A stretch of DNA of 64,000 nt from an uncultured Chloroflexia bacterium (GTDB taxonomy: Bacteria > Chloroflexota > Limnocylindria > Limnocylindrales > CSP1-4), in assembly GCA_963813335.1 (NCBI GenBank), contig CAWEYL010000001.1:1120001-1184000 (forward strand). Direction: 5' to 3'. The notes under the pieces are model-generated. The model was not told where the DNA came from, searched no databases, and worked only from the letters and a program-made list of their open reading frames with translations. Position numbers and translations under genes: made by a program. This document shows, piece by piece, positions 31,340 to 62,076 of the stretch; within the stretch, counting starts at the first letter, position 1; each line of letters starts with the position of its first letter.

Positions 31340-33043
<1,704 letters not shown>

Positions 33044-33066: not shown

Positions 33067-33648
33067 TCAGCCGTTCCCGAACGCCGCGATGGCCTCCTGG
33101 ATGCGGTCCTCGGGCAGGTCGTTGGTGATCACGACGTTGACGATGTCGGGGTCCGCCGACGGCCAGGTGACGACGCTCTGCAGCCGCTCGCCGGTCTTGG
33201 TGTCGAGGCGCCGGGCGTGCCGCCCGGCGATCGTCGGCGAGGAGACGCCCAGGATCTCGGTCCGGCTGGCGGCATCGGCACTCGAGGCGTAGAAGTCGCC
33301 GATCATATCGGCCGTCAGGCCCGGGGCGCTGAAGACCGCCAGCGCCGCGGTCCGCTCCGCCCCGAAGGACCAGGTCCCGCCGCCGAACCGCAGCTCGTCG
33401 ATGCCGGCCGCGGTCAGGGTCCCCATCGCTTCGGGCGAGCAGTTGCGCCCCGAATCGAGGCTCCCGGGCGCGGCGTCATGGAAGGTCTTGGGGACGCGTG
33501 CCTCGAGCTCGGGGTAGGCGCCGGGGGCCGATCCGTCGGCGGTGCAGAGGCCGGTCGGGTCGAACGATGCCGCCGGCGGCCCGGAACAGCCGGCGACCAC
33601 GAGCAGCACGAACAGGAGGGTGGCGACGAGGCCGGACCTGGGAAGCAC
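33067..33648 (-). CDS. Hypothetical lipoprotein
   Basis: LVATLLFVLLVVAGC lipobox-like signal; two further Cys. Confidence 0.65.
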   Translation of the reverse strand: MLPRSGLVATLLFVLLVVAGCSGPPAASFDPTGLCTADGSAPGAYPELEARVPKTFHDAAPGSLDSGRNCSPEAMGTLTAAGIDELRFGGGTWSFGAERTAALAVFSAPGLTADMIGDFYASSADAASRTEILGVSSPTIAGRHARRLDTKTGERLQSVVTWPSADPDIVNVVITNDLPEDRIQEAIAAFGNG

Positions 33649-33783
33649 GGACGGAAGCGTACCCGTGCTCGGCCGAGCGTGCCCGCAGCGGGGTGGTGCG
33701 CCGCCGCACCTGGTACGGGCGTCCCGGGGTGGTGCGTCCACGCGCCCGACCATCGACCCTGTCCGCGGGGGACAAGGGTGCCA

Positions 33784-33812
33784 TTGCTCCCCTGCTCGTC
33801 GGGACCTAGTGT
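33784..33812 (+). promoter_or_regulatory. Sigma70-type promoter TTGCTC-N17-TAGTGT
   Basis: Canonical spacing; no credible plus-strand CDS downstream. Confidence 0.55.
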
Positions 33813-33816
33813 TCTG

Positions 33817-34047
33817 GGTACGCCGACCCGCGATCGAACCGGGAACTTCCTGGGGCGTCGGTCACGGAACAGGAAACGGCCCTTCGTTCTGAGGATGGTT
33901 CGGAGCGAGGGATCCCGGATCCAGTTCACGAGCCGAATAACTGGACATCGGCCAACAGGCCTGGTGGACCGTCGGGACGGCAGCGCTTATCGCTCGGTCA
34001 TCTCTAATCAGCGGATAGAACGCCCTCCGGCTATCGGGGGGCGTTCT
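33817..34047 (+). ncRNA. Candidate structured small RNA (~230 nt), family not recognised
   Basis: Upstream promoter; hairpins at 33881-33911, 33920-33945, ~33946-33966 and terminal 34017-34047; G-U pairs favour the + strand; lower GC than flanks. Confidence 0.5.
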
Positions 34048-34092
34048 CGCGTCCGGCGACAGGTCGGACGTCGACGCGACGGCCGCCCAGGG

Positions 34093-34822
34093 TCAGGCGG
34101 AGCGGCCGGGACGCACCCGCTCCGGCTCCGGGCGGGCACGGCGGTGGATCCCCCGCCGGTCGAGATCGGCCTGGACGACGCGGGCGGCCGACACGAGCTC
34201 CGGGTCGCGGGTCACGGTCCCGCTGAGCCAGTCGATGTACGACGGCTCGAAGGACGGCGATCTGGCCCAGCGTGTGCCCGTGGAACTTGCCGAACTCCAC
34301 CGGGTACACGTTCGCCTCCTCGAGCGACGGGGGCGGCCGGCGCCGGAAGTGGCGGACGCGGTCCTTGATCAGCGGCCCGGTCGGGGTGGAGGCCCGCGGC
34401 GGCTCGCCTCCGACCGACTCCGGGCGGGGCGGCGGCTGGCCGGGGAGCGTCGTCCGCGGAGCGCCGTGCGCGGCCGCCTGGTTGCGCGCCCGGTACGTGG
34501 CGCTCATGTCGACCCGCCCGGTCACCGGGCGCGTCGGCTTCGGCCGCGGCGGGCCGCCGCGCTTCGGGCGCGCGTCCTCGTCGAAGGTGGCCGGCTCGCC
34601 CGCGCGATCGGCCGCGGACCGTCCCGCCGCGTCGCGGGTCAGCGCCGCGTACGCGTCGTTGATCTCCGCCATCTGGCGGGTCGCGATGCGCGACAGGGCC
34701 GGGTCGTCGCCGGTGAGGTCCGGGTGGTGGGCGCGGGCGAGACGGCGCCAGGCTGCCTTGATCTCGGTCGCCGAGGCGTCACGTCCGACGCCCAGGACCT
34801 CGTGCGGATCGCGCTTCGCCAC
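34093..34822 (-). CDS. J-domain (DnaJ-like) protein with C-terminal FGK-motif domain (frameshift near 34250)
   Basis: DPHEVLGV..IKAAWRRLARAHHPD..MAEINDAYAAL; C-terminal FGKFHGHTLGQIA / FEPSYIDWL. Confidence 0.8.
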
Positions 34823-34876
34823 GTGCTGAGTGTACGGCGCTTGACAGGTCCGTCGGTCGTGGCGTCCCCTTGCGGC

Positions 34877-62000: not shown

Positions 62001-62076
62001 TGGCGCCCCCGGCAGGATTCGAACCTGCGACCTTCCGCTTAGAAGGCGGCTGCTCTGTCCACTGAGCTACGGGGAC
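62001..62076 (-). tRNA. tRNA-Arg (anticodon TCT)
   Basis: GTCCCCGTAGCTCAGTGGACAGAGCAGCCGCCTTCTAAGCGGAAGGTCGCAGGTTCGAATCCTGCCGGGGGCGCCA: cloverleaf, T-loop GGTTCGAATCC, encoded CCA. Confidence 0.97.

Follow-up and report, generated by a model that had tools for sequence, protein, structure and literature searches.

A structured RNA gene with a four-way-junction core in one family of uncultured Limnocylindrales

A 64,000-nucleotide (nt) stretch of the genome of an uncultured Chloroflexia bacterium (assembly GCA_963813335.1, contig CAWEYL010000001.1, positions 1,120,001 to 1,184,000; hereafter the window) carries a gene for an RNA of approximately 230 nt between two genes that lie on the opposite strand. 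Comparison of this interval with its homologs indicates that it almost certainly encodes a genuine structured RNA that is transcribed independently and represents a new family. The RNA appears to belong to a family and a fold without a described relative, and it is confined to one family of uncultured Chloroflexota within the order Limnocylindrales, where nearly every member encodes it. As to its role, we give about even weight to the interpretation that the gene is an independent one whose product, an abundant and stably folded RNA outside the described families, acts in trans as a binding platform. The evidence is computational throughout; the genome that contains the window is 81% complete, several other genomes of the family are incomplete, and all derive from uncultured organisms.

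Results

Fold and Covariation of the RNA Core

The core of the RNA is a four-way junction that comprises helix P1, hairpin P2, a long P3-P4 arm, and hairpin P5, and this fold is backed by covariation. It was derived with RNAalifold from an alignment of sequences from the genus (A1) and from inspection of distant genera, and it consists of the following elements.

33822 to 33832, + strand: P1, 5' strand; paired with 33970-33981 as the closing helix of the four-way junction
33970 to 33981, + strand: P1, 3' strand; T 33972 is bulged
33835 to 33857, + strand: hairpin P2; C35-G57 and G36-C56, an AA/GG internal loop, then 33839-33843 with 33849-33853
33858 to 33936, + strand: long, irregular arm of approximately 80 nt (P3-P3a-P3b-P3c-P4)
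33858-33862 with 33932-33936, + strand: P3; bases nearly invariant
33865-33867 with 33927, 33929, and 33930, + strand: P3a; A 33928 is bulged; bases nearly invariant
33868-33874 with 33920-33926, + strand: P3b; strong covariation
33877-33879 with 33915-33917, + strand: P3c; strong covariation
33881-33892 with 33900-33911, + strand: P4; strong covariation
33937 to 33949, + strand: junction strand J3/5 of 13 nt, which carries a near-invariant TAAC
33950 to 33961, + strand: hairpin P5, GGCC-AACA-GGCC; 33950-33953 with 33958-33961; invariant in the genus
Between P5 and the 3' strand of P1, + strand: return strand of 8 nt

Covariation was evaluated on two alignments. The family alignment (A3) has 75 rows, 74 of them distinct, and was produced with a model given 74 of 80 loci; the six loci left out were duplicates of genomes already present. 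Standard pairs accounted for 92.8% of 3,529 cells in A3, compared to 82.9% in shuffled alignments and 24–48% in controls with slid partners, and changes on both sides were observed in 38 of 50 pairs (304 cells). None of 500 shuffles reached any of these measures. A1, which was aligned with MAFFT only and is shallower than A3 but free of model bias, yielded 92.9% paired cells (88.6% in shuffles) and changes on both sides in 20 of 65 pairs, again unmatched by any of 500 shuffles. The covariation among relatives that had been proposed as a check on the RNA is therefore present in both alignments.

The support differs among helices. Ten of the 11 pairs of P1 change on both sides across the family, with 90.8% of cells paired, and four of the seven pairs of P2 do so in A3, with 99% of cells paired in A1. 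P3 exhibits a swap from G-C to A-U in six distant sequences (columns 66/222). P5 is paired in 99.3% of A3 cells, and three of its pairs each have one change on both sides. P3a and P5 are almost invariant and rest mainly on conservation. Near-invariant bases comprise GGCGTCGGTCACGG at 33854-33867 and CACGAGCCGAATAAC at 33927-33941, and the invariant positions cluster at the 3' end of P2 leading into P3, in the internal loop between P3 and P3a, in the junction TAAC, and in P5. A search for tertiary pairs among unpaired columns returned one-sided changes only, and an A/U swap that links the P5 loop to J5/1 within the genus could not be extended to a helix.

A preliminary description of this interval, made from the sequence of the window, had listed several of these elements, and all of the letters that it quoted are present, including TTGCTC at 33784-33789, TAGTGT at 33807-33812 after a spacer of 17 nt, and each of the stems at its position. 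Its 12-bp stem with three G-U pairs (33881-33911) corresponds to P4, its GGCC-AACA-GGCC hairpin to P5, and its 13-bp terminal stem (34017-34047) to the terminator; all three are kept in relatives, and the first and third covary. The remaining helices were not supported. Rather than pairing with AACTGGA, TCCAGTT pairs with AACAGGA at 33868-33874 to form P3b. Closure of the junction by TCCCGG/TCGGGA would be paired in 93.8% of cells in the genus and 78.3% in the family, and it competes with the covarying P1. The two long-range pairings, TTCCTG/CAGGAA and GACC-GCGAT/ATCGC-GGTC, found no support when tested together with the other two: as a set, the four pairings reached 70.6% in A1 compared to 71.3% in shuffles (486 of 500 shuffles did as well) and 64.8% in A3 compared to 65.2%. 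Half of that helix list is wrong in detail.

Promoter, Ends, and Strand

The signals that flank the core outline a transcription unit, as follows.

33784 to 33789, + strand: -35-like hexamer TTGCTC; the consensus in relatives is TTGCC
33807 to 33812, + strand: -10-like hexamer TAGTGT, 17 nt past the -35; TANNNT in relatives
33820 to 34050, + strand: RNA gene of approximately 230 nt; predicted start at an invariant A (33820), probable end just past the terminator hairpin
33982 to 34016, + strand: 3' tail (conserved, ..CTTATCGC) and then a linker of variable length in which ATC(G) words abound; both unpaired
34017 to 34047, + strand: GC-rich terminator hairpin of 13 bp; covaries and is kept across relatives

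The claim that the RNA has its own promoter is borne out by the pattern TTGNNN-N16-19-TANNNT, which occurs in register in 53 of 73 homologs compared to a mean of 0.1 in shuffled sequences and none in the reverse complement; when the first T is left free the count increases to 58 of 73. Among the 53 homologs that bear the pattern, 37 have a spacer of 18 nt and 14 have one of 17 nt. The end of the -10 lies 8–9 nt from P1 in homologs, and the position of the -10 together with the invariant A places the predicted start of the transcript at A 33820. A strong hairpin is located 3' of the core in all 73 homologs, and in several genera the hairpin is followed by short T runs (+ strand). The script used to find hairpins over-extends stems, and its counts of T runs were set aside.

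Several lines of evidence assign the structure to the + strand. G-U cells outnumber A-C cells by 285 to 52 in A3 and by 169 to 23 in A1, which argues that the structure exists on the + strand, and in the terminator one pair alternates among U-G, U-A, and C-G, which fits the + strand only. The predicted folding energy of the + strand is -115.2 kcal/mol (z = -4.57), a value not attained by any of 200 dinucleotide shuffles, compared to z = -1.79 for the - strand, where 10 of 200 shuffles were as good. The interval is also the lowest in GC of its neighborhood (0.60–0.66 versus 0.70–0.84). No conserved open reading frame (ORF) was found: the longest ORF on the + strand has a median length of 16 aa, and core lengths cover all three residues modulo 3. 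Promoter, terminator, covarying helices, G-U asymmetry, and the lack of a conserved ORF collectively uphold the proposal of a stand-alone structured non-coding RNA. Two further statements of the preliminary description stand as well, namely that the RNA is oriented opposite to both flanking genes, which are on the - strand, and that it is not their leader.

In the tail and linker, AUCG occurs 144 times among 73 sequences compared to 13.9 expected (59-nt stretch scanned: the last 13 nt of the core and 45 nt beyond, such that the count includes the copy in the conserved tail and the base of the terminator). These repeats bear on the possibility that the RNA is a base-pairing small RNA (sRNA), in which either the junction strand with TAAC or the linker with its ATC(G) words would be a seed that pairs with messenger RNAs and the core would only stabilize this seed. 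The promoter, the terminator, and a length typical of sRNAs are consistent with such a function, and a single-stranded linker with AUCG repeats could pair with GAT-containing start regions. However, a 160-nt core with an invariant junction exceeds what a seed carrier needs, and even members of the genus differ in the length and sequence of the linker. For the leader of the divergent operon, which was the single target tested, the cognate duplex was better in 36 of 73 homologs. On balance we consider a base-pairing sRNA unlikely.

Distribution Among Limnocylindrales

BLAST searches with the interval recovered homologs from 30 of 36 genomes of the same genus (72–82% identity) and from none of 24 genomes of a neighboring family; across the whole family, homologs were detected in 142 of 401 genomes and 23 of 49 genera. 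Two covariance models were also used. The first (R1), a model of the core built from 30 sequences of the genus, returned full-length, single matches in 105 of 151 family genomes and none in 19 genomes of a sister family within the order. The second (R2), built with the proposed structure from a trimmed alignment (A4) of 71 sequences that represent many genera, matched 135 of 151 genomes of the family (112 of the 121 of high quality), with 29 of 34 genera represented. In four other families of the class, R2 matched 0 of 6, 0 of 49, 1 of 50, and 0 of 1 genomes. The lone match outside the family (G476, from a sister family; 37 bits) was treated as false since it has many non-canonical pairs and neither of the syntenic neighbors. 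A pattern scan of the named genome collection returned at least 118 matches; among the matches listed, all 80 were of Chloroflexota type (uncultured Chloroflexia, Candidatus Limnocylindrales, or Chloroflexota).

R2 detected one copy per genome, with two genomes excepted. When BLAST and model searches are taken together, two copies were observed in the family genomes G353, G209, and G372; those in G353 are on two contigs with identical scores, which looks like a duplication introduced by assembly.

Search Against Known RNA Families

The window was searched with the 4,227 models of Rfam. At gathering thresholds nothing was detected at the RNA core, and the sole match in the window was a tRNA gene (62004-62076, - strand). 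Nothing was detected at the core when the region 33600-34250 was searched at E-values up to 10. Two matches from these searches were rejected: nhaA-II on the terminator (26.5 bits compared to a cut-off of 70.4) and anti-hemB within 33600-34250 (14 bits). Twenty distant loci yielded no matches at gathering thresholds, and the 20 short homolog stretches, searched at E-values up to 10, yielded 10 weak matches, each to a different family. The suggestion that this might be a new class is thus sustained by the lack of an Rfam match for this copy or for 20 homologs. The abstract openings of papers returned by a full-text literature search contain nothing on a non-coding RNA in this lineage.

Identity with RNase P RNA, signal recognition particle (SRP) RNA, or a cobalamin riboswitch had already been doubted, and the blank Rfam result agrees. 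SRP RNA and RNase P RNA are moreover both encoded elsewhere in five of five genomes; in contig 1 of the genome that contains the window (G000) they are located at 275961-276060 and 450128-450498, respectively. Membership among riboswitches was not supported, since the RNA is not the leader of a co-directional gene (in 72 of 74 loci the next gene is encoded by the other strand) and matches no aptamer model, including that of cobalamin. The locus does fit the generic profile of a stand-alone sRNA gene, with a promoter in 53 of 73 homologs, a hairpin in 73 of 73, no conserved ORF, and RNA-library contigs over 33829-34012 in all four runs examined.

Membership among 6S/Ms1-like RNAs, which had been raised as a possibility, was not supported. 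The 6S model (RF00013) returned no match at E-values up to 10 for this copy or 20 homologs, and the covarying fold is a four-way junction, unlike a rod that opens into a central bubble. Ms1 is known from actinobacteria; the host here is a member of the Chloroflexota (Limnocylindrales) and not an actinobacterium, which makes kinship with Ms1 unlikely. The 6S model also found nothing elsewhere in the same genome, in 5 chosen genomes, or in 41 genomes of the class Limnocylindria. It matched 13 of 37 genomes of the phylum from outside the class, and in the same phylum sample three further genomes of the class, as well as G000, had no match. This suggests that the class lacks a recognizable 6S RNA and that 6S in Limnocylindria is either very divergent or replaced.

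Such a replacement raises the possibility that the RNA is a functional stand-in for 6S RNA or Ms1, that is, an abundant RNA of unrelated fold that holds back RNA polymerase. The lack of recognizable 6S RNA in a class (0 of 41) whose phylum the model can serve (13 of 37) is in keeping with this, as are the single-copy, near-universal presence of the RNA in the family, its occurrence in small metatranscriptomes, and its general outline, in which a stem closes a large, interrupted loop and a long arm of irregular structure is present. However, the would-be bubble is filled by P5 and by P2, a hairpin supported by covariation; P1 is only 11 bp long; approximately 70 nt lie outside the closing stem; and the RNA is missing from sister families that also lack a 6S match. 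The 6S control was blank on Corynebacterium too, and the blank result therefore says little. Collectively, these observations render a 6S stand-in decidedly unlikely.

Presence in RNA Libraries

Six metatranscriptome runs contain part of this stretch. Four of them, from four studies of sediment, rhizosphere, and soil, were examined, and their contigs cover 33829-34012 and nothing else within 33300-34600. One contig is identical to the window over 149 nt. The left end at 33829 is common to three runs, and in two of these the sequencing adapter abuts it directly; the right ends range from 33945 to 34012, just short of the terminator stem. That no contig in the four runs covers 33300-33828 or 34013-34600 is not evidence, as the runs were chosen for the RNA. 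The orientation of the adapter would fit an RNA from the + strand if the libraries were stranded by the deoxyuridine triphosphate (dUTP) method. In a single contig, from run X19, position 34011 is followed by 137 A-rich letters that are foreign to the genome; this extension may reflect a chimera made during assembly, or else the RNA may have received a heteropolymeric, A-rich tail.

The shared left end could also be taken as the cleavage site of a self-cleaving or processed catalytic RNA. It recurs in three runs, with the adapter abutting in two, it is 9 nt inside the predicted transcript, and the conserved core is large enough for a ribozyme. However, 33829 lies inside the covarying P1, which would be an unusual position for a scissile bond, and no ribozyme family was matched. 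Loss of approximately 10 nt at the 5' ends of RNAs is an established effect of second-strand complementary DNA synthesis, and the 9-nt gap from 33820 to 33829 would fit such a loss of terminal bases. We therefore view a catalytic RNA as very improbable.

Neighboring Genes and Upstream Block

The genes and the conserved block that surround the RNA in the window are the following.

34093 to 34825, - strand: J-domain protein with an ExoX-like C-terminal domain (J-domain/ExoX-C); convergent neighbor; the frame changes near 34215-34250
33067 to 33650, - strand: lipoprotein-like ORF; divergent neighbor; its signal peptide ends in a ..VVAGC lipobox
31340 to 33043, - strand: methylmalonyl-CoA mutase, B12-dependent, beyond the lipoprotein-like ORF
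33690 to 33783, no strand: conserved upstream block that adjoins the -35; repeated GGTGC/GCACC words

The J-domain/ExoX-C gene is downstream and convergent (tail-to-tail) in 72 of 74 loci. It encodes a protein of 235–300 aa with an N-terminal J domain, and an intact ortholog (L072:1712-2419) matches DnaJ with 45.9 bits and ExoX-like_C (PF20600) with 27.8 bits (cut-off 26.5). Shorter J-domain/ExoX-C genes occur in the sister family (26 genomes sampled, with one unpublished genome left out), and the RNA was not found beside them (best score 12.7 bits). The lipoprotein/mutase pair is upstream and divergent in 56 of 74 loci; in the other 18 it is replaced and the RNA stays. In the window, the mutase ORF is open with an out-of-frame stretch at approximately aa 190-293, and its Pfam matches are in two pieces. 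Orthologs of both the mutase and the J-domain gene are intact in other genomes, which suggests that the frame breaks in the window reflect indel errors in the assembly rather than pseudogenes.

These arrangements bear on whether the RNA senses a ligand, such that binding at the junction would decide between termination and read-through; given a convergent downstream gene (72 of 74 loci), read-through would be antisense to the J-domain gene. Riboswitch-controlled antisense RNAs occur in Listeria and Enterococcus, the pattern of conservation here resembles that of an aptamer, and the terminator begins a median of approximately 15 nt past the core (by a finder that over-extends stems). In a test of the one alternative pairing considered, between the 5' region and the 5' half of the terminator, the cognate duplex was better in 35 of 73 homologs. 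Thus, no pairing that competes with the terminator was found to co-vary; the linker, moreover, is variable, no riboswitch family was matched, and the contigs end before the hairpin with none extending into the J-domain gene, although this last observation is weak evidence. A ligand-sensing RNA is accordingly improbable, and we assign it only a small share of our belief.

The inverted repeat CGTCCCG...CGGGACG occurs in the upstream block, which different genera retain with few changes in length. No covarying helix on either strand and no Rfam match were found for it; one of the alignments used comprised 47 of 73 sequences picked by hand, with near-identical and the most divergent rows left out. 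The block may be an operator for divergent promoters or the leader of the lipoprotein/mutase operon. Just 5' of the TTG of the -35, a CAT (33782-33784) is conserved (CCATTGCC), which reads ATG on the - strand. ORFs that start at this ATG are arginine-rich, differ in frame between genomes, and are unlike real proteins; the CAT is probably conserved as a part of the promoter or of the upstream block.

The same neighborhood could suggest that the conserved interval is not a + strand RNA at all, and is instead the leader of a - strand operon, a 3' element of the J-domain gene, a DNA site, or a gene for a small protein. The region sits between two - strand genes, the terminator hairpin could serve the J-domain gene too, and a separate, unstructured conserved block lies just upstream. 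Against this, G-U cells exceed A-C cells by 285 to 52, the promoter pattern is confined to the + strand, the - strand folds no better than shuffled sequences, the RNA persists in the 18 of 74 loci where a different gene lies upstream, and no ORF is conserved. We find this alternative barely credible.

Discussion

The interpretation that we favor is of an RNA that acts in trans as a binding platform. A conserved sigma-A-type promoter (TTGCC-N17/18-TANNNT) lies upstream of it, the RNA would end at its own terminator in all conditions, and the invariant core of junction and loops would form a platform for a specific protein, with the RNA acting as a scaffold or a sequestering RNA. The first candidate partners would be the J-domain/ExoX-C protein, the gene for which is nearly always adjacent, and RNA polymerase. 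Action in trans rather than in cis is suggested by the convergent orientation of the next gene in 72 of 74 loci together with the result that no co-varying antiterminator was found in the one alternative pairing considered, and a leader is disfavored by that same orientation and by replacement of the upstream pair in 18 of 74 loci. Invariant junction and loop bases combined with covarying outer helices point to a protein-binding platform; in terms of conservation, the RNA does not look like a base-pairing regulator or a cis-acting leader. A protein-binding mode of action in particular falls a little short of an even chance.

Several observations weigh against this interpretation. In the window copy the terminator hairpin is not followed by a T run, and a strict scan for an Escherichia coli-type sigma-70 promoter and terminator consensus returned none of either. 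A3 was aligned by a model that already carried part of the fold, which favors that fold, and for this reason the count was repeated on the MAFFT-only A1. P3, P3a, and P5 are near-invariant, and covariation therefore cannot confirm them within the genus. The metatranscriptome runs were picked for containing the stretch, and their contigs prove no start, end, strand, or level; their common left end at 33829 is 9 nt inside the predicted transcript, within P1. The link with the J-domain gene could merely reflect a shared bidirectional terminator. Finally, the suggested mode of binding is drawn from the pattern of conservation alone.

A narrower version of the binding-platform interpretation is that the RNA is a component of a new ribonucleoprotein, either as a 6S stand-in of unrelated fold or as a partner of the J-domain/ExoX-C protein; we consider this unlikely. 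If the J-domain/ExoX-C protein were the partner, the result would be an RNA-linked Hsp70 co-chaperone system of a kind not described in bacteria. If the RNA stood in for 6S, it would represent a structurally unrelated replacement in a class without recognizable 6S RNA.

Irrespective of the partner, an RNA that is single-copy, kept in approximately nine of ten genomes of the family, endowed with an elaborate core, and visible in small metatranscriptomes likely does something central to the cells that encode it. The core is as elaborate as that of a large riboswitch or a small ribozyme. Its hosts constitute a large lineage of uncultured Chloroflexota represented by metagenome-assembled genomes from soil, wetland, and sediment, and we know of no isolate of the family. 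The RNA could serve as a sensitive marker for this lineage in environmental transcriptomes, and the defined 160-nt core is offered for probing of ligands, proteins, and catalysis.

Comparison With Known RNA Systems

The RNA shares several characteristics with 6S RNA (RF00013) and Ms1: it is single-copy, stand-alone, probably abundant, approximately 200 nt in length, and widely kept in its lineage, and its 5' part pairs downstream such that the large loop thus enclosed bears a long, irregular arm. Unlike 6S RNA, however, it has hairpins P2 and P5 in place of the open bubble, its junction is strongly conserved in sequence (for 6S, conservation is mostly of shape), and approximately 70 nt of tail and terminator lie outside the closing helix.

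Riboswitch aptamers offer a second comparison, with which the RNA has in common the size of its core, the pattern of conservation, and a terminator soon after the closing helix. Cobalamin elements in Listeria and Enterococcus are aptamers that end in sRNAs or drive antisense RNAs, and a B12-dependent mutase gene is found near the RNA. In contrast to riboswitches, the RNA has no co-directional downstream gene (convergent in 72 of 74 loci), no sign of a conserved antiterminator in the one pairing considered, and no match to an aptamer model; the mutase gene is oriented divergently, with other genes in its place in 18 of 74 loci.

A third comparison is with raiA, OLE, and similar orphan large structured bacterial RNAs that were discovered by comparative genomics and that are all represented in Rfam. 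Like raiA and OLE, the RNA described here has a multi-helix fold with invariant junction bases and covarying stems, is restricted to a lineage, and is not tied to a downstream gene. It differs from them in that it matches neither in sequence nor in structure, in its host lineage, and in its four-way junction of approximately 160 nt with its own terminator. One report on OLE describes a protein partner that is encoded nearby (PMC3413148). What is new in the Limnocylindrales RNA is its fold, its conserved junction, and its fixed pairing with a J-domain gene; the type of gene to which it belongs, that of a stand-alone small RNA, is ordinary.

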